The notes beneath the pieces are model-generated. The model worked only from the letters and a program-made list of their open reading frames with translations, was not told where the DNA came from and ran no database searches. 12,747 nt of DNA from a virus: UHGV virus genome UHGV-0250286. One strand, given 5' to 3'. Positions 1-12,747 of this stretch are shown piece after piece. The translations under genes were made by a program, and so were the position numbers. How positions within the stretch are numbered: position 1 is the stretch's first letter; each line of letters begins with the position of its first letter.

Positions 1-134
1 AGGTGAATCATTGGGGAGTGCCGTTAAGCGGTATATGTCAATGAATACTGACGCAGCGCCAGCACAAGATTCGACACCTTCAGGAGAACCACGGAATCAG
101 GTTGGATCATATACCTCAAGATCAGGCATTCAAT

Positions 135-1208
135 TTACTCAACGTCTTTATCCGTTGCTGGGCCGGGAGGTAGGAATTTAAGAACCTGACTGTTAACAAG
201 GGCATTTTGGCGAATGCGCAAATCACGCAATGTCGTATCGCTTCCGGTAAGTTTTGCGAACATGTTCTGTGCGTTACCGAACAAGCCGGTCGTTGGTTTT
301 TCTGCTCTGAACTGTTGAGCAAGCGCACTCATGGAATTGGCTGAGTTTGATGATGCTGTGGCATTGTTTACAGCCGTCTCGATGCCTTTTTCCATGTTTA
401 CTGACAGCTTAGGTGCTTCGCTAATCAACTGCTGAGCCTTTTCCTGCGCTTGCTGCATCTTAAACCCGAACTCTTGCTGATCCAGAGCCAAGCGTTGTGC
501 TGCGATATTGTGCCCAGTCATTGCTGACTGATAGGAAAGGTTTTGCCCTCTCGCCTGAAGTGCTTCACCAGCCTGATTGCTGCGGATTGTCTCTGCCAGC
601 CCGCCTCGGTCAATCTCACGACCAGCCATCTTGTCCTGAACATTGAAGTAATCAATCGGACCAAGAGCAGCCATTCCAAGGTGATCAACAAACTCACCAA
701 ATCCTGAAGGATTCTGCTGATACATCTGAGCAACGCTGTTAGGGTCAACACCGACGCGAGTCAGTTCCTTGGCGTTGTTTTGCAGCCATGATTGCATTGC
801 TTCTGGAGACGATGACGCAAGGCGTGCGCCAGCCGCTAATGTACCGATAGAATTACGCTGGTCTTCATCAATGAATCCCATGCCTTTACGAACGGATTCA
901 ATCTGGTCTGGATATTGAGTAGCTAACTGACGCAAAGCACCGCGATCACCAGACGCATAAGCATTAGCGTATGCCTGCTGAAATTCTTTCTGCCGCTGAG
1001 CCTGCTTTTCCTGCTGAAACACCCCTGCAATACCTGAAAGGCCTTGCAAAGCAGTCAGCCCAACATTGTTAGCGCCTGAACGCTCAATATCATTGTTCTG
1101 CCTGATAAGCTGAAGCGTATTGCCGATGTCATTTACGCTCGGAGCGTTTGAGTTGACGCCGCCGATACCAGCCAACAATCCGCCGTTTGTTCCTTGCCAA
1201 GTAGCCAT
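135..1208 (-). CDS. ejection (E) protein, P22 gp20-like
   Basis: 357-aa ORF directly downstream of the gp7-like gene, the position gp20 occupies in P22. Start ATG at 1206-1208 is preceded by a GGGG Shine-Dalgarno in the 9-bp gap after the gp7 stop. Gln/Ala-rich, low-complexity composition typical of ejection proteins. Shorter than my recollection of P22 gp20 (~470 aa). Confidence 0.6.
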   Translation of the reverse strand: MATWQGTNGGLLAGIGGVNSNAPSVNDIGNTLQLIRQNNDIERSGANNVGLTALQGLSGIAGVFQQEKQAQRQKEFQQAYANAYASGDRGALRQLATQYPDQIESVRKGMGFIDEDQRNSIGTLAAGARLASSSPEAMQSWLQNNAKELTRVGVDPNSVAQMYQQNPSGFGEFVDHLGMAALGPIDYFNVQDKMAGREIDRGGLAETIRSNQAGEALQARGQNLSYQSAMTGHNIAAQRLALDQQEFGFKMQQAQEKAQQLISEAPKLSVNMEKGIETAVNNATASSNSANSMSALAQQFRAEKPTTGLFGNAQNMFAKLTGSDTTLRDLRIRQNALVNSQVLKFLPPGPATDKDVE

Positions 1209-1217
1209 GATTACCCC

Positions 1218-1910
1218 TTAAAACAACGAGCCAAGCAATCCGATACCAGCACCAATGCCAGCGCCCCAAGGCGTTGATGTTCCCAAAAGGCTGGCAAGAC
1301 CTGCACCGGCAATCGCACCAGACGTGCCACCGCTAATTGCAGTCTGAAGACTTGATGGTTTATTGGCATTAGCAGCGGCAAGTGCTGCGCTTTGCTGTGC
1401 AATGCTGCTCATGTTGTTGGCGTATGTCTGCCCAGCGTTTGCCTGACCTTGCAGCGCACCAAGCCCAACGTTTGCCAGATTGTTGTAATTGCTCATCTGA
1501 TTTGATAACCAAGACTGACCGAGTGTCGGCGCGATCGTAGCCAGTTGATTGCTTGTGGCTGTCGAACCAAGTCCACCCGTCGCCTCCGCAGCAGCAAGAC
1601 TCTGGTAACGAGCCTGCCCTGCAAGGTCTTTATACTGCTGAGAGTTGTAATACTGATTAAGTGCCTGCCCCTGACCTTCTAAACTGGAAAGGCTCTGAAG
1701 CTGGTTAACATACTGCTCCGCAAGAGGCGTGAACTGAGCAAGGTTTTTCATGATCGTCTGCCACTGCTGATTTTGCAGGTCTGCAGCATACTTCTGGGCT
1801 TCTGCTGCATACTTTGCGCTTTTATCAGAACTGCCACCTTTCCCGCCTTTTTCAGGGCAATAAGGTTCCTCGCCGCGCAGTTTTCTGCCCAGCTTAAATG
1901 CATATAACAT
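1218..1910 (-). CDS. ejection protein, P22 gp7-like
   Basis: 230-aa ORF. N-terminus MLYAFKLGRKLRGEEP... and the Gly/Ala-rich C-terminus ...WGAGIGAGIGLLGSLF match the P22 gp7 family as I recall it. Correct position between the gp14-like and gp20-like genes. Confidence 0.8.
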   Translation of the reverse strand: MLYAFKLGRKLRGEEPYCPEKGGKGGSSDKSAKYAAEAQKYAADLQNQQWQTIMKNLAQFTPLAEQYVNQLQSLSSLEGQGQALNQYYNSQQYKDLAGQARYQSLAAAEATGGLGSTATSNQLATIAPTLGQSWLSNQMSNYNNLANVGLGALQGQANAGQTYANNMSSIAQQSAALAAANANKPSSLQTAISGGTSGAIAGAGLASLLGTSTPWGAGIGAGIGLLGSLF

Positions 1911-1912
1911 GG

Positions 1913-2371
1913 CTATCTCCCGTGATTCAGGAAGTCGATTAGTTCTTCGCGTGTGGCGCTGTAAAACGTCACGTCATCCACGCCTTTAAAGTATTTCTTG
2001 ATGGTTCCTACACGATTAAGGCCAATCATTGCGCAGTACATCTGCCCGTGGCGGAATTTGCGTGCAGCGAACGATGTGACACACTGAACAGTGGTGTTAG
2101 TCAGAATGTATCGCCAGAACGCCAGCCCGATTTCCTTGCTGAATCCACGAACCTCTGGCAGGTACATGGCGTGGCAATCAAAGGTCAAAGGCTGAATCTC
2201 CTGATAGTAAACAATGCCGCCGAACTGCCCGTGCACGTTCACCTCGAAGTAACGGCATTCAGGCTTGTAGTCGTATCCATCACCGTTGTTGCTCCCGGCA
2301 ATAATGTCAGGGTGATTTCCGACTGCTTCGATCAGGTCGATGTTTCGCGTTTGGTTGAACTGAATCATCAC
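1913..2371 (-). CDS. P22 gp14-like protein (assigned by position)
   Basis: 152-aa ORF between the tail needle and gp7-like genes, where gene 14 sits in P22. Its ATG (2369-2371) overlaps the tail needle stop as ATGA, suggesting translational coupling. Assignment is positional only. Confidence 0.5.
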
Positions 2372-3321
2372 TGCTCCGCGATTATCTTGATGGTTGTGGC
2401 AGTAAACGCCGCCACATTTGACTGGATGGTTAACGTACTGCCATTTGTGGCAAGAAAGCCGTCTTTATCCACGCTGAAGAACGTAGCTAACAGGATGTTA
2501 TCGGTTGTTGTCGCCGAGTTGCGACTGCTTACCAGTGTGTCAGGAACAGATCCGGAAAAGGTTAGCTGCATTGACCTGTTTGCGGTTCCGCTGGGCCACG
2601 TCCCGACAATCGACAGCTTGAAGAACAGGGTTTTGTTCTCGTTGAAAACAACCATCTTGTTGTTATCAGTATCGAAGAATGGTGCCAACGTCCCGGATGA
2701 CGGCGTGAGCGTTTTCAGCAGGCTAACAAGGTTGGTCGGCGCTGTTGGAATGGTTACCGATACTCCTGAGTAAACAACCTCTGATTTCTTGCGCGTGGTG
2801 GCATACTCAAGCGCAGATATTCTTGTTGAGTGATCACCAACTGTGCTTTGTAGCGTCGAAATACTTCCCTCTGCCGCTGTGAGCCTGGTATCAAGTGCGT
2901 TGATATCGGTTGTATTCTGAGTTATTCGCGCATCATGGTTTGCTAACTCAGATTCATTGGCAGCAATTCGCGTCTCGTGATCAGCCAGCTCTGTTTCGGC
3001 AGCCGTAATCCTTGTTTCATGATCTGCAAGAGTGCTTTCCGCTGCTGCGATTCTATGTTCATGATTGACGAGAGTTGCTTCAGCAGCAGCAATTCTGGAT
3101 TCATGGTCTGCAAGGGTGACATCCTGCTCATCATTCTTCACCTGTGCATCATAAGCTCCCTTCCCTGCTTCGTTGGCCTTGTTAGCCACGTTACCAACAT
3201 CAGTACCCTGTGCGATAACGTACAGCAGATATGACTGCGAGAAGATATTGCGTGGAAGGACTGATGTGTCGAGTCGTGTAGCCTGAATGATTACCGGCTC
3301 ATTGAGATTCGAATCAGCCAT
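2368..3321 (-). CDS. tail needle (P22 gp26 family) with a C-terminal knob-type domain
   Basis: True start is [43 protein letters not shown]..., the conserved gp26 N-terminal domain. Its ATG (3319-3321) overlaps the gp10 stop. A central coiled-coil repeat region is followed by a ~150-aa Ser/Thr-rich C-terminal domain unlike the P22 gp26 C-terminus, resembling the knob seen in Sf6/HK620-type needles. The ORF track's 351-aa form includes an upstream extension I regard as spurious. Confidence 0.8.
2905..3114 (-). repeat. five imperfect 42-bp tandem repeats (14-aa repeats) in the tail needle coiled-coil region
   Basis: Protein shows [14 protein letters not shown] / [14 protein letters not shown] / [14 protein letters not shown] / [14 protein letters not shown] / [14 protein letters not shown]. 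The DNA shows recurring gcagcaattc/gcagccgtaatc/gctgcgattc blocks. Confidence 0.7.
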
Positions 3322-4748
3322 TACTCGATCCTTATCTGGCAGCCAGACAGAGTGACAGGTGACTTCGTGATAACGCGCAATTTGAAGCCGACATTTTTCC
3401 TGATGCGCCCGACTCGCTTCCACAAAACACGCTTGTCGTAAACGAACGGTTCATTCTGCTCAATCATCTGCTCACGACCGTAATTGATGCCATCAGTGGT
3501 TGCCGAGAGGAACAGGCGGTCGGCGTACTGAGCGACCCCCGTCGATGATTCCACCTCCAGATCAAAGCATCTGGCGTTATCTGCTTTGAAGAGTGGAGTA
3601 AACAGCAGGTGTTCTTGCTGTAGCCCATACTGGCTGCTGATGTCGAACTGCAATTTTCCGGTCACGGACTCCAGCTTATCGCCGCACGTTATCTGATTGC
3701 CTTCGTAAATGAAGTCGATAGCGCGGTACACATCGTCATACAGGCCTGTTTTCAGCACACACCATTGCGGACCATTGGCGCTTGAAGATGCGTCGTACAC
3801 AAGGACGTGACGCGAAAGATGGATAATCAGCAACTCATGAGCATCAAACCGCAACGATTCCATCACACCATCAGCCAGTTCATCAGCAGTGTAGGAGCGG
3901 AGGATTTTCTCAATGCTCGCGCTGGCGATTGGTGATACCTGACCGGAGCCGATGATGTATACAGACGGAGCACCTGTTGCCGGATTGCTGATAAACGCAT
4001 AGGAATCAGCAAACGGCGTTTTGCAGTAAGTTCCGGCAATGCCTTTCTGCACCATCAGTGATGGCTGTGCGACATACAAAGCGGCACCAACGGTGGTTGC
4101 CCCAGTCAGGGAAAAATATTCAATCGTCGATGAACCAAAGCAGACGATGAAGTCTCGCCATGTTCCGATGCCGAGGATACCGTCCGGCTGCGATTCTGCG
4201 CGATATTGTGCGCTGTAACGGTCAGGATGCGATTCGTCTTCAGGGTCAGTGATAAACCATGAATCCGTGCCGTCTTTTGACCACGCATAACGCCCACGTA
4301 AACGCGTAATGTCGCGAACCGAACCTAACTCATACTGAGTGAATCCGCTGTCTGTAGGCCAGTTTGAGACTGTTTTAACCGTTCCATCATAGCGATACTC
4401 GACCAGTTGACCATTAACGCCTACCGCCTGAGATGTTCGACCATGCGCCATTGATACGCGACCACTTCCGGCAACATCACCGACCTCGCTTTCGCCCTTA
4501 TACAACTTGCCACCGCAAACGCGATAAACAGCATTCTGCGCCATGTTGTACTCGACACCGCGCGATACACCATTCACATCAGAGCGTTTGGCAATGCCAG
4601 GGAATGAGCGAAGATATCCACTGCTGTTGAGGATTTCTTTGGGGGTTGCCAGCATATTCACTGGCAGATAGTCGATATAGTCGGCGTTTCGAAAGTCTTT
4701 GCCACCTTGAAATGATGATGGCTGAATGGCTTGGCGGTGATGTGTCAC
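3321..4748 (-). CDS. gp10-like head-completion/tail-hub protein; native first ~12 codons replaced at a rearrangement junction
   Basis: From [38 protein letters not shown]... to the C-terminal ...[11 protein letters not shown] the ORF matches the P22 gp10 family. Upstream of codon G(12) at about 4703 the reading frame continues into the reverse complement of a gp4 fragment ([15 protein letters not shown]), beginning with GTG at 4748 and no Shine-Dalgarno. The native N-terminus [20 protein letters not shown] is found instead on the plus strand at 5089-5151. Confidence 0.7.
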
Positions 4749-4807
4749 CTGGTATCAACGTTGGCTACATTTTCGCTGATGCAGATGTCGCTCCAGATCC
4801 GGGCGAT
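4678..4807. repeat. left junction block: 26-bp (4678-4703) plus 104-bp (4704-4807) segments whose exact reverse complements occur at 5125-5150 and 5151-5254
   Basis: I reverse-complemented both segments by hand and they match 26/26 and 104/104. 4678-4703 is tagtcggcgtttcgaaagtctttgcc; 4704-4807 runs accttgaaatgatgatggct...gatccgggcgat. Confidence 0.9.
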
Positions 4808-5089
4808 GAGCACGGTTTATCAAATAACGCTATCAATGCCGTCATTTTCAACCTTGCCTGCCGCATTGCTCCGGATTATGCGCTGGAAGCGTCTGCAAAA
4901 CTTATAACCACTGCCAGATACGGGAAAGAGAGACTCGTCAAACTGTCTGCAATGGACAGAGCAAAAGCCGCTAAATGTAAGTCCGGTTATCCAAACCGTA
5001 TGCCTGTTGGTAGTGGTAACCAGTTGGCGAAGTGGAACGGCTGGAATTACTTCCAGCGAAAGGAACCTTGCGATAACGGGAGCGAATAA
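4704..5089 (+). pseudogene. 3' portion of the gp4-like adaptor gene, inverted onto the plus strand
   Basis: Plus-strand frame encodes [127 protein letters not shown]. Joined to the minus-strand N-terminal fragment this gives a ~166-aa gp4-like protein. No Shine-Dalgarno ahead of this fragment. Confidence 0.75.
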
Positions 5090-5151
5090 TGCCGATTCAG
5101 CAACTTCCGCTTATGAAAGGTGTCGGCAAAGACTTTCGAAACGCCGACTAA
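5089..5151 (+). pseudogene. first 20 codons of the gp10-like gene, inverted onto the plus strand and detached from the gene body
   Basis: ATG at 5089-5091 overlaps the gp4 stop (TAATG) and encodes [20 protein letters not shown], then a stop. GKDFRNAD continues as YIDYLPVN only on the minus strand at about 4677. Confidence 0.75.
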
Positions 5152-5254
5152 TCGCCCGGATCTGGAGCGACATCTGCATCAGCGAAAATGTAGCCAACGT
5201 TGATACCAGGTGACACATCACCGCCAAGCCATTCAGCCATCATCATTTCAAGGT
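5125..5254. repeat. right junction block: 26-bp (5125-5150) and 104-bp (5151-5254) inverted copies of 4678-4703 and 4704-4807
   Basis: ggcaaagactttcgaaacgccgacta followed by atcgcccggatctggagcgacatc...catttcaaggt. Perfect reverse-complement identity to the left block, but the two sub-blocks are in swapped order, so this is not a simple palindrome. Confidence 0.9.
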
Positions 5255-5369
5255 CGTTGACGCCGTCTTCCATAGACTGCGGTTCGACATCGGTTAACGT
5301 GGCATTTGATGCCACACCGAGCTTACGTAATGCCGCAAGAACTAAATCACCCTTCGTTGTCAGGTTCAT
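5148..5369 (-). pseudogene. 5' portion of the gp4-like adaptor gene (73 codons), ending in a junction-created TAG
   Basis: ATG at 5367-5369 with an AGGCGG Shine-Dalgarno 6 nt upstream. Encodes [73 protein letters not shown], then TAG exactly at the 5150/5151 junction. The track's upstream [10 protein letters not shown]... extension is the hexanucleotide repeat read in another frame. Confidence 0.75.
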
Positions 5370-5595
5370 CTGCTGCCGCCTTAGGTTTTCGACCAGGCTT
5401 TTTACGCTGTTTTTCTTCTGGCTCTGGCTCTGGCTCTGGCTCTGGCTCTGCAACATCATTCAGAAGATTATCAGGATGTGCAAACCAGCCAGCATCCAGA
5501 TATTCCTGAAGCTCTTCGGCTTTCACGATTTCAAAGTCGTATCCAACGCCTTTCCATTTCTTCATGTCGCCATGACGAAAGATCATGTGTGTCAT
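5347..5595 (-). CDS. hypothetical small protein (82 aa) between the coat and adaptor genes, with an acidic (EP)5 repeat and a basic KKPGRKPK tail
   Basis: ATG at 5593-5595 with a GGAG Shine-Dalgarno 6 nt upstream, located just downstream of the post-coat terminator. Encodes [82 protein letters not shown]. Its 3' end overlaps the gp4 start by 23 nt. Sf6-type genomes carry a small ORF in this position; P22 itself, as I recall, does not. Confidence 0.55.
5417..5450. repeat. hexanucleotide microsatellite, (GCTCTG) x5 plus a partial unit
   Basis: tctg gctctg gctctg gctctg gctctg gctctg is read directly in the sequence. It encodes (EP)n in the 82-aa ORF on the minus strand. Confidence 0.9.
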
Positions 5596-5608
5596 GCTTG
5601 TCTCCAGA

Positions 5609-5632
5609 TAAAAAAGGGAGCCGAAGCTCCCT
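5609..5632 (-). terminator. rho-independent terminator immediately downstream of the coat gene
   Basis: Minus-strand RNA would read aGGGAGC-uucg-GCUCCCu followed by UUUUUU: a perfect 6-7 bp GC-rich stem, a UUCG tetraloop and a U-tract, 8 nt after the coat TGA stop. There is no T-tract in the plus-strand orientation. Confidence 0.75.
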
Positions 5633-5639
5633 CTGGTTA

Positions 5640-6935
5640 TCACGCAGTCTGGTTAGGCAGACCAACACCAATTGCCTCTGGTCGTACAGCACATGCTGAA
5701 TACCACACAGCAATACGGCACTTACCAGACAGAGTGTTGATATCACCCTGCGTTGCGAAGATGCCGTTAACACCAATACCTGGAATGCTGAAGGAAGAAG
5801 TTTTCATGCCAGCAAACAGTTCATGGGTTACCGGAATCGGCTGAGACAGCAGGCGGATTGAGTCATCAGCCCAGAACACGTTAGCGGTGGTTGTTGCCAC
5901 GTTCAGAACGTTTACCGGAGTGGTATTAGCAAGAGAGGTGTTTACGTTAGCGTAAGCCTTCTCTTCTTTTGTCAGTGACGCGTCATCCAGCGCAATCGGC
6001 TTCGGCGTGATTTCGATGTGAGTATTATCGATCACTCGGGTGATTGAGAAAGTCGCATCATCAGTCAGCACGTTCTTCGCCATCTGAGACAGGAATTTCA
6101 CACCAGTGAAGCTGATTTTGTCGCCGCGCTTAAATCCGGTGGTGGAGGATACGGTCACCGTTGCAACACGGTTGTCGACGTTCTCCTTGTTACCATCGGT
6201 ATCAAGGGTGTATGCCTGCGGCTTAAACTTCTGCGCTCCAGACACAGTTACACCAGTAGCGGTTGACTTGGTAACTGCCGGAAGTTTCGGTGAGCGAAGA
6301 ATTTCATCAAAGCCAGCAATCTGACGCTGAATAGTACCGTTGCGATACGCTTCTTCAGGAACGCGACCGAAGATGTCACCATCTACCAGGTTGCGGCCTG
6401 CTTTGCGGTAATCGTCAGGATTCAGGAAGTAACTGATGCCCATATCGCGGTTTAGCTCACGGGAGAACATCAGTCGCTCTGCATCAGACACAAAATCCCA
6501 TCCAGACAGGCCAGTAGATGGACCAATTGCGCGGGTATCGTGAACAACAAGCGAGCCCATTTCAGTTGCCTGTTTGGCAATTGCTGACTCAATGTTATTC
6601 GCCAGTTTTTTGGCGGATGCCTGGATGCGGCGACGGTAAGAACGCTCATCACGCAGGTCATCTGCACGAAGCTCGAAGAAATCGTTATCCGGATCGCCCA
6701 TGTTGCATTTCACGGAGAGTTCCAGAATCCCGGTTGCGTTGTCAGTTAAATCCCAGCCAGTCTGGGTTGGCGCTTCCTGCTCAACAGGCATCCACACGGT
6801 GTTGCTTGAACGCTGCATTGATTCTGCCGGAGGGGTGTATTTTGTCACTTTGGACGCCATTGGCGTCAGGTTCTGGACGGTTTCGATGATTTCATCCAGA
6901 GCATATGTGACCAGTTGACCTTCATTTAATGCCAT
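5640..6935 (-). CDS. major capsid (coat) protein, P22 gp5 family
   Basis: 431 aa. [27 protein letters not shown]...[14 protein letters not shown] is collinear with the P22 coat protein as I recall it ([20 protein letters not shown]...GVGLPGQTA). ATG overlaps the scaffold stop. Confidence 0.95.
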
Positions 6936-7846
6936 TATCGAATTCCTTTATTCAGTTGCGCCTTAAGCTTGCGGTACGTCTCTACATCCCCTTTGTTTGC
7001 TGCCGCTTCCATCTGCTTTTCAATCGCAGAGATATTTGCAGCAACAGCGTGTCCCTGAATGGGTTCATCAGGTAACGGGGCTTCTGAAACAGGCTTTGCT
7101 CGAGGCTTGAGAGTTAAACGTTCTGACAGTCGAGTGAGTTCAATCAGCGCGGATTGCCCGTCCATCGCCAGCAACTGGCGTGTTTTCTCAGGATTAGCAC
7201 CAAGGTGATACATGAGAGCAGCGGATTTCTCCGGGAAGAGGCGCATGATGTCGGCACCGACTGCTGGCGGCACCAGTTGCATGAATGCATCCTCTTTCTC
7301 CTGATAGTCAGGGATATTGAGCTTTTCCGCTGCGTCGTAGTGCTTACGGGCTGCCTCGACGTATTGCGCTGATTGCTGGGTGAACTCCTGAGTTTTGCGA
7401 CCCTGCTCGGCGACAGCCTGGCTTCGTGCGTCCATAGCCTTGATCTGCCATTCACTGTTTGCCTGCTGGAAGGCAGCCAGTGCGCGGCTCTGGTCATAGT
7501 CGTACTTAGCCAGTGCATCTTCGGAAAGATAATCGTTAGGGTCTGGTTGTTTTGGTAACTCAGGGTTCACCCGCAGGTGCTCCGGCAACTCTCCACGCTT
7601 AACCGCTTCCATCTGCTGCTCAAGCTCACGCTGGCGTTTGCGTTCGATGCGGCGACGGGCAAATTCAGCATTAGTTGCCGGGTCTTGTTTTGGTTTCTCA
7701 TCGTCTTTCAGGACAATCTCAAAGCCTTCTTCCTGACCTGCACTGTCGTTGGCATTATCGACAACTAAGCCATCAGCAGATGCCGCTGCATGATTGCCGG
7801 GCAGGGTTAATTCTTCAGAAGCCTGAATGTCGGTGGTTTGGTCCAT
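6935..7846 (-). CDS. scaffolding protein, P22 gp8 family
   Basis: 303 aa, highly charged and helical in composition, between portal and coat. Same length as P22 gp8. A GAGAGAG Shine-Dalgarno precedes the ATG. Confidence 0.93.
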
Positions 7847-7859
7847 GGTTAACTCTCTC

Positions 7860-10025
7860 TTATTGAGGTGTCTCGGCTACTCCGCCGGAGGGGATTTGAA
7901 CTTGACGCATAAGATTCGCGAAATCCATGCGTTGTGAATGAGTCTGGTCTGCATCTTTAAGAAGCAGCTCAGCGTTAGCACGAGCATCTTTGCTGCGCTG
8001 TTGCTGGAATTGAACTACGAGCTTGAGGTACTCACGCAGTTCTGCCTGCTTGTCGAGGTCCATATTGTTGAAGATTTCTGCAATCTTCGCGGCGTTGAGT
8101 TGGTTTTGGGCTTCAACCTTGGCGGCTTCAACCTGAATCTGCGCCTGTTGGTTCTCTGCCTTGAGCAATTCAGCCTGACCTTGCAGAAGGATACCCTGCG
8201 CCTGAATTTGCTCTGCTGATGGCTGCTGCGGCTGCTGTTGAGCCTGCTGTACCATCTCCATCTCTTCAGGTGTTTCTGGTTTCTTCAGCCCCATCATCAC
8301 CAGTTGCTTGTTCGCGTACTCTCGCATCATCTCGACGCCTTTACCGTCAAGCAGCGTGAAGTATTGCAGCATCAGCATCTGGAACTCTGGAGTACCTTGC
8401 GGAACCTTGGTGAGCAACTCCTGAATCTCTGCGCGGTTCTGTTCCTTCATGCTCTGGAAGGATGGTCCAACTCCTATATAGCACTCGTAGCGACCGCGAA
8501 TGTCGTTGAGTGTGACCACATTACCGGACTGGTAATCGACAACTTGCGCGTAGAGTTGAACGTCTTTCTCGCTTCCATCTTCAAGTGTCAGCGTTACATG
8601 ACGAGGGATGTCATAAATATCATTGACCATTGAGGCATAAATCTCGCCATCACGCCGCATTGCGGTAGCCAGGTTATCCTGAAACACGTATGTCTCAAGG
8701 TCTGACCGCATGTTCAGTTGATTGACGGTATCGAAAGAGACCTGAGAGTTTGCTGCCTGTGCATCCACGCCAAGACTAGCCACCTCTTTCACTGCGTTGG
8801 TGGCAGCCTCAAGCATGTAAGCGTTGGCTTGCGGCACTTCAGGGTTTTCCATGTAGGAGATTGGACCAATCGGCAGGTCGTTACCGTTTTCATCAGTCCT
8901 GTTCTGGAGATAGTACGGATAGTCATCATTTCCACCGTACATGTATTCGTAGCCTTCGATTTGCTCAGGGAAGAAGGTCGGTTTCTTCTTCGGTGAACGA
9001 CCAACAATATCGGCGTTGAATGACATGATCATGTTACGAAGGCGTTGACCGTCTTTCGTCAGCCTTACCACTCCTTCGTAGCACTCCTTGTCACCAGCGA
9101 ATGACCATTCGCCATACACTGGAACGATTGGAATATGCTCTCCTGCTATCTTCTCGCGGTCTTTCAGTATCTGTGTGCAGGTGATGATCGACTTATACAC
9201 ACGCCGACGCTTCACCTTGCGCTCTGCTACCTTAATGAATCCACGATTAGCCAGGTCGTCGATGACGTCTTTAATATCCTGCTGGTAATAGCTGACCGGC
9301 TCACCTGTCAGCGGGTCGCGGTAGATGAAGACCTTCTCTTTCTTCTCTTCTATCTCGTAATACTCAGCGACGTAGACGACATCATTCGATACCCACGGAA
9401 ACAGCCATGTGTCGTTCGGATTCTGGAAAGATGGCAAGGTGTCCGGATCAATACCGTAATCCTCTGCGAACTCTTTCCAGCCATTGCGTGACAAGGCGTT
9501 AATCACCGTGCAGTGCTTAGCGTCGCTCTTATCCATCTGCTTGCTGTTGGCGTCCCATATGACGTGTGAGCAGGCCTCATGGATTGGCAGGCGTCTGATT
9601 ACCTGATTGTTGCTTGTTGGATCGTTGTCTTCGTACTGTGTGACCAGACGCCATGCACCAACGCCGGACTCTATCTGCTCACGAACGCCAACGTTAACGG
9701 CAATCTTTGCCGTGTTATGGCGCATATCAGTACGATACATCCCCATCAACACATCGGCTGCATCAGGATTAGCGCCGTCTTTGGGTCGGAAGAGAACGTC
9801 GATAGGGTTCCGGCGCATCTCTGCGACCAGTTTCCTGACCACTGGGCGAACAACATCGAATTGTCCGCGATATTGCAGGGTGGTGTAGTTTGATAGCCAG
9901 TCATCCCATTGCGACACTCGGCTAAAAAACAGGTCATTTGTCGCCTCGGTTCTGGCTTCATCGCTCGCCATCCAGTCTGCGTCAAACTTACACAGAATGG
10001 AATTGAGTCTGTTTTCGTCGGCCAT
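7860..10025 (-). CDS. portal protein, P22 gp1 family
   Basis: 721 aa. [44 protein letters not shown]... and the C-terminal ...[10 protein letters not shown] match the P22 portal family. The Gln-rich C-terminal barrel region is present. Confidence 0.95.
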
Positions 10026-11525
10026 TTAAGTTCTCCGTGCGATGGGCCTGATTGGGGCTGGTATCTTTTTCTCTTTTGGTTTTTTGATGTCGCGCATCAT
10101 TTTGGCGAAGCGGCGCATCATGTATGCATAGCGAACGGCTGAGAGAACGTCGTCGTTAAGCTTGACGATCTTCCCGTTTTCATCACGGTGATAGAGGCGG
10201 AACTCCTCAAAGAATGGCTCACAGGTGTTGAATACTTTGAAGCGACCATCGAGCATCATGTCGCGCAATTCAGTGATGCCAGGCTCCACAGCATTACCGC
10301 CATCAGGCCATGTCGCATGCTCCTGCAACATCATAAAACCAGCGTCCGCGTACTGCCCTTTGAGCTGCTCACCGCCGCCCTTCTCATGCTGGTTTCCGTC
10401 ATGAGGCCATGCGGTTGGCACTTTATGCGCCCATGATTTAACAGCTCCCCATGCCTGAACAGCTGTTTTTTCTTTCGCCTTCCACACGCGTGAAACGTAG
10501 ATTGTGTCTGCGTCCTTATCCCACCAAAGCTGAACCTGCGCCTGTGGGTGATCCCATCCGAAATCCATCCCACCAATTACGTAGAAGTGATCAGGACACT
10601 CGAACGGCTGACACTTAATAGTCTCTTCCGGTATCTGGAAGATTCGACCACTACCCATCGTAGGAATACCGCGAGCACGCGCCTCTCTCTCATGCTCGGG
10701 ATAGGATGCGATGATTTGCTCTTTCTGCTCGTCGGTGTAGTGCTCTGCGTCATAGATGGTCATGTTGACCACTTTCTGCGACTTGCTGGGATTCTTCAGG
10801 AACTTGGTAACAACGTCAGACATCCCCATCAGCGGGGTAAACGTCAGAATTGAGAATTGCCCGTATTTGTTGGTACGGGTAAGACCTTCGCCATAAATGC
10901 TGTATGGTGGCTCTTCGTCAAACCACACGCCGTGGATTGTGTCACCCTGCCAGCGAGCGCGGCCTTGCGAGTATGGTTTGAAGTAGCAGATTGAAATGCC
11001 ATCTTCAACGCCATCAGCCGTGTGATGCTTAACCAGAAGATGATCAACAAGGTTCGGAAAGAAAGGAGACTTCTTCCAGCTAATGATGTCCTCTTTCGGT
11101 ATAGAACCGTAGCCCGGTTCATCATTCTCTTCAATACGACCGCACAGGATGCGTTGAGTCGTTTTGGTTACCGTCTCGTTTGTCTCGCCACCAATCCAGA
11201 AGACAACAGGCTCATAGAAACGCTTACCTTTCCACTCCCCACCATATTTACCATCAGCAGGATAGCCTTTTGTGCCCGGATAACGCCCTGTAAGGTGAAA
11301 CGCGACTTCAGCAGCACCAGTAAATGACTTACCAAGCTGGTTACCAGCCATAAAACAGCGCTCTGGATAGTCATGCCCGGCGTCGATGAACTCACGCTGT
11401 TTGCTGTATGGCGTAAATTCATATAGCAGGTGTGTGTTCCGGTAGTTCTCTTCTTCTTCGAGTAGCTCGAGCAATTCGATTTGCTCTTCGTCGCTCAGGT
11501 TATCAAGAATCGCGTCCAGTTCCAC
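10026..11525 (-). CDS. terminase large subunit, P22 gp2 family
   Basis: 499 aa, the same length as P22 gp2. Has a Walker A-like motif ([10 protein letters not shown]) and a nuclease-type C-terminal half. Stop TAA abuts the portal ATG (TTAAATG) with a GGAGAA Shine-Dalgarno. Confidence 0.95.
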
Positions 11526-11991
11526 GGTTGAATAGCTCCTTGATACGAGAGCGTCGCTTATCGCGATCTCCCTTATCAGGTGTCACGTCTTCAACTTGCG
11601 ACTGCTCTTTGAGGCCCAAATCACGGGCGATGATGTTAGCGTTGAGAAGGTCAGCGGCTGCGCCAGAGAATTTCTGGTCGTAGATGATGTCTTCCGCTCG
11701 TGATGTGACGTCAGAAAAACCTTCCATTGACCGGAAGGTTCCCCATGTTTGCCTGGTGATATCAAGGAAGGTACACAATCCTGAAATAGTCATGGCTCGC
11801 ATCTTAGGGACATTAGCCTTAATTATTTCTCCCTGATATGAAAATACCTTACCCTCCCATAGCGGGTTATCATCAGCCCACTCGAAGTATTCACAACAAG
11901 CTGCCCACAGCGCCTCAGGCGATTCGAATTTAGGATTTCGCCCATGACTACTGCGGGCCTCCCAAAATCGGTTGCCCTTTGGTGCTGCCAT
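11503..11991 (-). CDS. terminase small subunit, P22 gp3 family
   Basis: [38 protein letters not shown]...[14 protein letters not shown], 162 aa from the second ATG (Shine-Dalgarno AGTGAG 6 nt upstream). The track ORF begins two codons earlier (MNM..., 11997). Overlaps the large terminase gene by 23 nt. Confidence 0.9.
11701..11724 (-). other. candidate pac (packaging initiation) site, diverged from the P22 pac sequence
   Basis: Minus strand reads gaaggtttttctgacgtcacatca (codons EGFSDVTS) at the position in the small terminase gene where the P22 pac site GAAGATTTATCTGAAGTCGTTA (codons EDLSEVV) lies, as I recall it. Several positions match (GAAG.TTT.TCTGA.GTC). Confidence 0.35.
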
Positions 11992-12026
11992 ATTCATCTC
12001 ACTTAATCGTTATTTCAGGTTGAGCA

Positions 12027-12269
12027 TCATGCTCCGGTGGTGAACAGGTCTAACGCCTCCTTCGATTTACGCACCGCTTCGATTGTGCGGGTCGTGATAT
12101 CTGAATTAGCGCCACCTGACTGGAAGTGAATTTTGAATAGCTCAAGCTTCAGCTCGTCAGTGCCAATGAACTGAAATGCTTCTTCTGCGGCTGCGTTCTG
12201 GTTCATGACCAGTTTGTAAATCTCTAACTGGAATTTCTGTTCTTCAGTCATGGGAATAATCTCTGCCAT
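12027..12269 (-). CDS. hypothetical protein (80 aa) immediately upstream of the small terminase gene
   Basis: Open frame MAEIIPMTEEQKFQLEIYKLVMNQNAAAEEAFQFIGTDELKLELFKIHFQSGGANSDITTRTIEAVRKSKEALDLFTTGA ending 30 nt before the small terminase Shine-Dalgarno. Weak ribosome-binding site, start uncertain, and I do not recognise the family. Confidence 0.35.
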   Translation of the reverse strand: MAEIIPMTEEQKFQLEIYKLVMNQNAAAEEAFQFIGTDELKLELFKIHFQSGGANSDITTRTIEAVRKSKEALDLFTTGA

Positions 12270-12351
12270 TGTTGGCTCAAGATTCTTTGTGGTGGCGGAC
12301 TGATGGAAAGACATCCGCTGAATCGATGATAAACAAGTGGAAGAGGTTGCG

Positions 12352-12522
12352 ATGGTTTCCGTGAACAAAGATCCGAAGGAAGGCGTTGAATACATCACTG
12401 GTGCTGATGGTGTGAAAAGACCAATGGCTTATTACAAAGCGGCTGAAGAGAGGGCAAGAATAGAAAATCCCCCTAAATGCGGATCATTTTTCGACATGCT
12501 GGACCTTCAATGGAAGTTGTGA
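12352..12522 (+). CDS. hypothetical small protein (56 aa) on the strand opposite the late operon
   Basis: ATG at 12352 with a strong GGAAGAGG Shine-Dalgarno 5 nt upstream. Encodes MVSVNKDPKEGVEYITGADGVKRPMAYYKAAEERARIENPPKCGSFFDMLDLQWKL. A terminator-like hairpin follows 11 nt after the stop. Confidence 0.4.
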   Translation: MVSVNKDPKEGVEYITGADGVKRPMAYYKAAEERARIENPPKCGSFFDMLDLQWKL

Positions 12523-12532
12523 ACAACTAACA

Positions 12533-12557
12533 GGTCGCTCAGGCGGCCTTTTTTATT
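12533..12557 (+). terminator. candidate rho-independent terminator for the plus-strand small ORF
   Basis: GGUCGC-ucag-GCGGCC (6-bp stem with one G.U pair) followed by UUUUUUAUU. The minus-strand orientation has no U-tract, so it would not stop late-operon transcription. Confidence 0.35.
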
Positions 12558-12747
12558 GCCATCACAAAAGCCATTCCCTACAGAGTGGCTTTGGTAATGG
12601 CTTATAATCAGGCAGGAGGTTCATCTTTCAGTGGCTGCCAGTGTTATTTCCCCACTTACTGGCTTGGGTTGTTTCGCGGTACTGCCGTAACTGGTTGCCC
12701 AGAATAAATTCCGGTTTCATTATCAAGCCCACCCGTAGATAGGCTTT

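Follow-up and report, generated by a model that had tools for sequence, protein, structure and literature searches.

The window analysed here, a stretch of 12,747 bases, comes from a P22/Sf6-like E. coli prophage and represents its late (morphogenesis) region, in which the genes are read from the minus strand. In this region the neighbouring genes for the head-to-tail adaptor gp4 and the tail hub gp10 are both broken by a single inversion with duplicated ends, and this rearrangement is far beyond chance. Comparison with an intact public contig of otherwise identical sequence suggests that the damage most likely has a non-biological origin, introduced while the sequence was produced. The likeliest route is that an intact sequence was edited or simulated; a chimera or mis-join is less likely.

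The intact sequence is contig k119_55360 (ENA ERZ27235180), which matches the whole window at 100% in six exact pieces with no mismatches. Window positions 139-4703, 5151-12278 and 12607-12747 correspond to contig positions 15327-10763, 10445-3318 and 2936-2796, respectively, while positions 1-138, 4704-5150 and 12279-12606 are inverted and correspond to 15517-15654, 10342-10788 and 2944-3271. These three inverted segments are the sole differences between the two sequences, with no substitutions and no small indels over 12.7 kb. The comparison revealed no IS element in the window, and marks of natural decay (accumulated point mutations, deletions, IS insertions) were not found relative to the contig over the same 12.7 kb. 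The next-closest relatives already diverge from the window by about 1% or more.

Both genes are intact in k119_55360, which encodes a gp4 of 166 aa and a gp10 of 472 aa, and the same lengths were found in all of nine other loci that carry an identical 82-aa neighbour gene. The segment at 4704-5150 is inverted relative to strain Ecol_881 (NZ_CP019029.1) and to all ten related loci compared (10/10). The window shares its gene order with intact P22/Sf6-like (Lederbergvirus-type) E. coli prophages and phages: small terminase, TerL, portal, scaffold, coat, the 82-aa ORF, gp4, gp10, needle (with an Sf6-type knob), gp14-like, gp7 and gp20. Phages Louie, Dewey, IME10, HK620 and Sf6 are 91-94% identical to the window over positions 3000-5700. 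In these phages, as in k119_55360 and Ecol_881, gp4 and gp10 are collinear and intact, whereas the inversions are present in the window only.

The inverted segment between gp4 and gp10 is 447 bp long (4704-5150, plus strand) and extends from codon 39 of gp4 to codon 21 of gp10. It replaces the usual 317-bp connection between gp4 codon 73 and gp10 codon 13, and sequence at both of its ends is consequently present twice. A 26-bp block covering gp10 codons 13-21 (contig 10763-10788) occurs as a direct copy at 4678-4703 and as an inverted copy at 5125-5150. A 104-bp block covering gp4 codons 39-73 (contig 10342-10445) occurs as an inverted copy at 4704-4807 and as a direct copy, inside the remaining gp4 fragment, at 5151-5254. 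Both pairs are perfect and are the sole inverted repeats of at least 20 nt in the window; the repeat tool stretches the longer one to 107 nt at 99% identity, the extra bases being due to chance. Relative to the reference order A-B-C, the window thus reads A-C'-B'-A'-C, which is the arrangement of a dupINVdup inversion. Because of this inversion, gp4 ends after 73 residues, the start of gp10 lies on the opposite strand, and the gp10 body is left with no initiation site. The exact wild-type sequence is restorable in two steps, by a flip via one of the inverted repeats and then a deletion between the resulting direct repeats.

The remaining N-terminal fragment of gp4 (5151-5369, minus strand) keeps its native ATG and Shine-Dalgarno sequence and is identical to contig positions 10227-10445. 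An earlier reading of the sequence alone (the sequence-only reading) had proposed that gp4 is cut after codon 73 by a TAG formed at the junction. The cut itself was confirmed, as the ORF starting at ATG 5369 ends in VAPDPGD, but the origin of the stop codon has to be corrected. The TAG (5150-5148, minus strand) lies wholly within inverted DNA, as the three bases with which the inverted segment opens past junction 5150/5151, and is not built from bases on both sides of it. The 73-aa fragment matches family PF11650 (P22_Tail-4) with 96.8 bits over profile positions 3-70 of 159. The displaced C-terminal part, residues 42-166 and the stop codon, is found on the plus strand at 4712-5089 (ATG at 4712, stop at 5087-5089), antisense to the late operon, and matches the same family with 111.3 bits over profile positions 44-151. 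Its ATG lacks a Shine-Dalgarno sequence (pairing -0.4), and no plus-strand promoter-like site for the displaced fragments was found within 4200-5700. Because residues 1-73 are encoded on the minus strand but residues 42-166 on the plus strand, a single continuous gp4 ORF that includes the C-terminal arm no longer exists. Once the parts are rejoined across the junction, the gp4 sequence matches solved P22 gp4 chains (e.g., 8tvu, E about 5e-57). The C-terminal arm of the adaptor binds the portal by inserting between portal protomers (PMC9728967), and the 73-residue fragment lacks this arm. A 73-aa gp4 product is on record once, in a 522-bp contig with 0.84x coverage. We rejected this contig as a case of the same inversion; its product stems from a GAG-to-TAG point change and is an unrelated coincidence.

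For gp10, the body extends from 4703 to 3321 on the minus strand without native codons 1-12, the ATG and the Shine-Dalgarno sequence. The sole long ORF left for it (4748 to 3321) starts with GTG and encodes a fusion of 475 aa, in which 15 foreign codons read from antisense gp4 precede gp10 residues 13-472. The match to PF11134 (Phage_stabilise) is full-length, with 973 bits over profile positions 9-469 of 469. The predicted anti-Shine-Dalgarno pairing energy is +0.6 kcal/mol at GTG 4748, compared with -6.6 kcal/mol at the native gp10 start and -7.5 kcal/mol at the gp4 start, and every other in-frame start within the first 70 codons of the fusion pairs at -3.0 kcal/mol or more weakly. The native gp10 start normally overlaps the gp4 stop (TAATG); here the Shine-Dalgarno sequence, ATG and codons 1-20 have been moved to the plus strand at 5089-5151, where their reading frame ends at a TAA (5149-5151) lying across junction 5150/5151. 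The ORF coordinates and pairing energies therefore agree with the earlier proposal that gp10 has lost its start and Shine-Dalgarno sequence, leaving a GTG-initiated fusion without a ribosome-binding site.

P22 mutants defective in gene 4 or gene 10 were reportedly described by Strauss and King in 1984 as impaired in head completion and in the stabilisation of packaged DNA. The same two families are hit here (PF11650 for gp4 and PF11134 for gp10), and the same phenotype would be expected: since the adaptor and hub connect the portal with the tailspikes and needle, heads should fail to hold packaged DNA and no tail should form. Unlike in the P22 mutants, both genes are hit together by one structural rearrangement rather than by point mutations, and the phenotype is a prediction from sequence for a lesion that is probably not biological. 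In P22 and Sf6, gp4 and gp10 make up the tail body, which stabilises the packaged DNA and recruits the tailspikes and needle (PMC9728967; PMC3741392). Given these adaptor and hub roles, the reasoning that the window would represent a defective prophage if the sequence is real is sound. Such a prophage is predicted to be unable to make infectious particles, because its gp4 fragment lacks the portal arm and its gp10 body lacks a usable start.

The damage is not confined to gp4 and gp10. The first 138 bases of the window are the end of a second inverted segment, which is cut by the window edge and joined to the remaining sequence at junction 138/139. This junction cuts the gene of the gp20-like ejection protein (PF16928; 135-1208, minus strand) after codon 357 of 468, with a TAA (137-135) directly past it. 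The sequence-only reading, in which the remaining morphogenesis genes all appear intact, is thus wrong on this point. Next to a third inverted segment (12279-12606), 46 bp of parental sequence are missing on one side and 7 bp on the other. This event turns a 56-aa ORF around and breaks the Shine-Dalgarno region of a DUF2560 gene (ATG 12269). All three inversions lie within 12.7 kb; they measure 447 bp, 328 bp and, for the one cut by the window edge, at least 138 bp. An inverted-repeat scan of the window (at least 20 nt) found no repeats flanking the other two.

All five junctions are blunt, with microhomology of 0, 0, 0, 0 and 1 nt. This fits random blunt joining and does not fit processes driven by homology or microhomology, or assembler joins that require k-mer overlaps. 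No common recombination or cleavage motif was seen across the ten parental break sites, and an Rfam scan of the whole window gave no family at threshold. The 24-mers spanning the two gp4/gp10 junctions had no exact matches in the viral_contigs, genome_contigs and metagenome_contigs collections, which hold part of all sequence data, while the canonical 24-mer, used as a positive control, was found in at least 120 IMG/VR contigs. Among 5,426 complete E. coli genomes, 914 match window positions 4400-5600, and none is collinear across that stretch. The whole window is likewise collinear in none of the complete genomes, the best of them covering 93% of it in four pieces starting at base 138. Neither the 357-aa truncated gp20 nor the 475-aa gp10 fusion is present among 153 billion gene positions.

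Whether the damage reflects a recent event or an artefact had been left open by the sequence-only reading. The exact intact contig, the blunt inversions, the absence of the gp4/gp10 junctions from the collections scanned, the lack of a collinear E. coli genome and the unrecorded products of two of the events favour the artefact and disfavour the recent event. We infer that the rearrangements are non-biological; by the likeliest route, an intact sequence would have been edited or simulated in a way that introduced three blunt-ended segmental inversions and no point changes. Artefact is likelier than biology because three flips alone separate the window from a base-identical intact contig, and three complex structural changes without point substitutions in 12.7 kb are not the expected spectrum of natural divergence. 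Plain scripted flips, however, would not normally leave duplications of 104 bp and 26 bp or deletions of 46 bp and 7 bp, so an artificial origin would require something other than simple flipping. A laboratory or assembly chimera (from MDA, library ligation, a long-read chimera or an assembler mis-join) would be a sub-case of the non-biological origin, and one that we regard as quite improbable. Inverted sequences with an intervening deletion make up more than 85% of MDA chimeras (PMC1855051), a pattern that the event at 12279-12606 resembles, and the uniqueness of the gp4/gp10 junctions would also fit. The chimeras described by Lasken and Stockwell (2007) share with the window the short-distance inverted joins within one molecule and the intervening deletion, but complementarity of 2-21 nt is present at more than 70% of MDA junctions, whereas five of five are at 0-1 nt here, so that the microhomology typical of template switching is missing (PMC1855051). 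Each event in the window needs, in addition, two matched junctions to regain the starting strand, and the consensus would have had to adopt three of these pairs. A noisy long-read assembly is hard to square with the perfect identity elsewhere, and De Bruijn mis-assembly at a repeat was rejected, as a shared k-mer or sequence is absent at every junction.

Some observations do count against a non-biological origin and for a real complex rearrangement that took place very recently in a lysogen, with breaks in the late region rejoined in the wrong orientation to give a defective prophage. In other organisms, inversions bordered by small duplications or deletions form an accepted class of natural rearrangement (PMC5338099). 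In the classes of Collins et al. (2017), the 4704-5150 event would be a dupINVdup (inversion with inverted duplications) and the 12279-12606 event a delINVdel (inversion with two deletions). Those variants were defined from human genomes and measure kilobases to megabases, whereas the window's events span a few hundred bp, number three in 12.7 kb of a bacterial prophage, and are all blunt (PMC5338099). The gene consequences are present in the sequence, the affected gp4 and gp10 are needed for packaged-DNA stability and tail building, and the absence of any point difference from k119_55360 would fit a very recent event. Such lesions would be tolerable in a repressed prophage, and no selection acts to retain these genes once a prophage is defective. 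We nevertheless consider a genuine rearrangement unlikely, as it needs three independent blunt inversions within 12.7 kb and no substitutions. Known rearrangements in E. coli mostly proceed via IS elements, homology or microhomology, and canonical Ku/LigD end joining is, to our knowledge, absent from the species, which is difficult to reconcile with microhomology of 0-1 nt. The gp4/gp10 junctions also occur in no collection scanned, with no collinear E. coli genome and no novel product recorded. That three real inversions arose together, when one catastrophic shattering of the late operon, for example by nuclease attack or abortive induction, was followed by homology-free rejoining, is very improbable. 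Still less credible, to the point of being negligible, is an intragenic inverton, a programmed and reversible flip that would toggle head completion via the 104-bp and 26-bp inverted repeats. Perfect inverted repeats do flank the segment, and homologous recombination between them is physically possible. These repeats are, however, coding sequence duplicated by the rearrangement itself: no inverted repeats exist at the breakpoints of the intact parent k119_55360, either at 10342/10445 versus 10763/10788 or at those of the other events, where an inverton would have pre-existing boundary repeats. An inverton would also have two orientations that are functional or observed in nature. In silico, flipping via the 104-bp repeat restores gp4 only, with a 130-bp insertion left in gp10, and flipping via the 26-bp repeat restores gp10 only, so no orientation gives both genes, and the alternative orientation occurs in no public genome (rearranged gp4/gp10 junctions 0 versus canonical at least 120). 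A recombinase domain is absent among the Pfam domains listed for the intact parent's genes across this stretch. The inverton was rejected on the lack of pre-existing repeats, the lack of an orientation with both genes, and the repeat-free sister inversions.

With a non-biological origin as the preferred explanation, the main value of the finding is cautionary: calling this prophage defective rests on gp4/gp10 junctions found in no other sequence, while an otherwise identical intact copy is public, and read-level support is needed before any biological conclusion on the viability of the phage is warranted. In a cell that really carries this sequence, head completion would be defective, as would DNA ejection via gp20. 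With functional gp4, gp10 and gp20 lost, a genuinely rearranged prophage would at best produce DNA-leaky, tailless and non-infectious heads, and the rearrangement would represent an unusually clean single-step prophage inactivation. Clustered, homology-independent inversions in E. coli would then be of interest to the field of bacterial break repair. A one-event shattering would be chromothripsis-like in an organism lacking canonical end joining, and would instantly disable the functions of gp4, gp10 and gp20.

All long ORFs of the window lie on the minus strand and constitute the late operon of an E. coli prophage, a P22/Sf6-like podovirus. The operon comprises the small terminase (11991-11503), TerL (11525-10026), portal (10025-7860), scaffold (7846-6935), coat (6935-5640), an 82-aa ORF (5595-5347), gp4 (from 5369), gp10 (to 3321), an Sf6-type tail needle (3321-2368), and gp14-like (2368-1913), gp7-like (1910-1218) and gp20-like (from 1208) genes. 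The nearest phages were Escherichia phages Louie, Dewey, IME10 and HK620 and Shigella phage Sf6 (91-94% over window 3000-5700), and related DNA was found in 1,920 of 5,426 complete E. coli genomes. The needle carries the knob domain of the Sf6 type (PF16532, 352 bits) and is not of the P22 type; its length ranges from 233 to 317 aa across four relatives (L006, L007, L009 and L010), indicating mosaicism at this gene. Within the 82-aa ORF, an array of TCTGGC hexamers codes for an (EP)n stretch (window 5417-5450; 8890-8950 in the related locus L002). Its copy number differs among relatives, and in the collinear strain Ecol_881 (NZ_CP019029.1) the array is 30 bp longer than in the window. A terminator-like hairpin with a T-run (AGAGGGAGCTTCGGCTCCCTTT TTTAT; 5613-5634, minus) lies directly 3' of the coat gene, before the 82-aa ORF and gp4. 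Some relatives have an HNH endonuclease gene (NUMOD4 and HNH_3) between gp4 and gp10 with both flanking genes intact (locus L012, 10868-11452; Salmonella phage UPF_BP1), so this boundary is a natural insertion site for mobile genes.

Looking up the 82-aa protein returned ten loci, all of which encode a 166-aa gp4 and a 472-aa gp10. The whole window was recovered at 100.000% from an intact public contig, L004 (ENA ERZ27235180, contig k119_55360, 414,950 bp), as six exact pieces. Window 139-4703, 5151-12278 and 12607-12747 are collinear with L004 15327-10763, 10445-3318 and 2936-2796, and window 1-138, 4704-5150 and 12279-12606 are inverted copies of L004 15517-15654, 10342-10788 and 2944-3271. 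Three inverted segments are therefore the sole differences between the window and this prophage.

The gp4/gp10 rearrangement was defined by comparison first with Ecol_881 and then with the identical contig L004. Window 4704-5150 (447 bp) is the reverse complement of gp4 codon 39 to gp10 codon 21, and stands in place of the 317 bp that normally join gp4 codon 73 to gp10 codon 13. Because the reversed 447 bp replace only 317 bp, inverted duplicates of 104 bp (4704-4807 and 5151-5254) and 26 bp (4678-4703 and 5125-5150) flank the event. It is an inversion with flanking inverted duplications in the order A-C'-B'-A'-C, which belongs to the "dupINVdup" class (Collins et al., PMC5338099).

The damage to both genes is as the sequence-only reading described it. 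The gp4 ORF from ATG 5369 (minus) is cut after codon 73, ending in VAPDPGD with TAG at 5150-5148, and the fragment matches profile positions 3-70 of 159 of PF11650 in Pfam. What remains of gp10 opens at GTG 4748 and stops at 3321. Its first 15 codons are unrelated, after which the gp10 sequence is taken up at residue 13; this fusion ORF matches PF11134 (profile positions 9-469 of 469). The native gp10 start is lost, and GTG 4748 lacks a ribosome-binding site, with a predicted anti-Shine-Dalgarno pairing of +0.6 kcal/mol as against -6.6 at the native start of gp10 and -7.5 at that of gp4. By predicted pairing, no usable Shine-Dalgarno sequence was found at other early in-frame gp10 starts. The displaced pieces have moved to the plus strand. 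One, from ATG 4712, encodes gp4 residues 42-166; the other, from 5089, has the native gp10 Shine-Dalgarno sequence, ATG and 20 codons, and ends at a TAA (5149-5151) that spans the junction. No promoter-like site on the plus strand was found near them.

That reading also described the other morphogenesis genes as apparently intact, which is contradicted at the left end of the window. The inverted segment ending at 138/139 extends past the left edge, and its junction cuts the gp20-like ejection protein gene (PF16928; ORF 135-1208, minus) after codon 357 of 468, with TAA immediately next. The third inverted segment (12279-12606, 328 bp) is missing parental sequence at both sides, 46 bp at one and 7 bp at the other; it places a 56-aa ORF on the plus strand (12352-12522) and truncates the GGAG Shine-Dalgarno region upstream of a DUF2560 gene (ATG 12269). 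In both truncated genes a minus-strand stop directly follows the last native codon (TAG, 5148-5150; TAA, 135-137), and three breaks fall exactly at codon boundaries. No motif accounts for the immediate stops, which have a chance of about 3/64 per event, and those after gp4 codon 73 and gp20 codon 357 may be coincidence.

The arrangement appears to be confined to this sequence. Exact 24-mers over both gp4/gp10 junctions gave no matches in IMG/VR, one genome per GTDB species, or JGI metagenomes; at least 120 IMG/VR contigs contain the canonical 24-mer. Window 4400-5600 was matched by 914 complete E. coli genomes, none with collinear coverage, and none of the complete E. coli genomes covered the whole window collinearly. 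The 357-aa gp20-like and 475-aa gp10 fusion products were not on record. The 73-aa gp4 product was found once, in a 522-bp contig at 0.84x coverage (L003 1-522; ENA ERZ2271888 NODE_49682), where it arises from a GAG-to-TAG change at codon 74 of an otherwise collinear gp4. This point change, which probably reflects an error in sequencing or an independent nonsense mutation, was rejected as a second instance of the inversion and is an unrelated coincidence.

Microhomology at the five junctions (138/139, 4703/4704, 5150/5151, 12278/12279 and 12606/12607) was 0, 0, 0, 0 and 1 nt, against 3.3 nt in total expected under random blunt joining (P of 1 or fewer = 0.20), with no sign of homology- or microhomology-guided joining. 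Neither inverted repeats at the breakpoints of the intact parent L004 nor a motif common to the ten break sites were found, which, with this microhomology, argues against site-specific recombination. Template switching or MDA priming is likewise disfavoured, since more than 70% of such junctions use 2-21 nt (PMC1855051). De Bruijn mis-joins would require a shared k-mer, which is absent. A programmed inversion switch can effectively be dismissed, as no orientation restores both genes: in silico, a flip via the 104-bp repeat restores gp4 only, and one via the 26-bp repeat gp10 only. A flip followed by deletion between the resulting direct repeats regenerates the exact wild-type sequence in silico, so the lesion, if real, would be revertible at very low frequency.

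Taken together, we consider the rearrangements probably non-biological. Three complex inversions came with zero point changes, an identical intact copy exists in public data, and the gp4/gp10 junctions and novel products are unique to this sequence, and nothing collinear with the window was found anywhere. Moreover, the joins are blunt, and E. coli is not known to have canonical end joining. Among the non-biological routes, an intact sequence that was edited or simulated is the better fit; chimeras from amplification and errors of an assembler predict microhomology or shared k-mers, and these are absent. A genuine event, which would have to be very recent and clone-specific, is unlikely. Accordingly, although gp4 and gp10 are indeed disrupted, the sequence-only interpretation was borne out only in part: the gp20-like gene is truncated too, and the gp4/gp10 feature most likely does not reflect real biology.

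The portal of P22-like phages brings in the adaptor (P22 gp4/Sf6 gp7), the hub (gp10/gp8) and the needle, which jointly displace terminase and retain the DNA inside; the adaptor attaches by inserting a C-terminal arm between portal protomers, and the hub recruits the tailspikes (PMC9728967; PMC3741392). The gp20 homologue belongs to the ejection proteins that build the DNA conduit (PMC8402733). Here the 73-residue adaptor fragment lacks the arm, the hub body has neither an initiation site nor its first 12 residues, and the gp20 homologue lacks its last 111 residues. With all three damaged, the prophage, if the sequence were real, should yield no infectious particles. The earlier prediction of a defective prophage thus holds conditionally, but complementation with gp4 and gp10 would be insufficient, and gp20 would also be needed.
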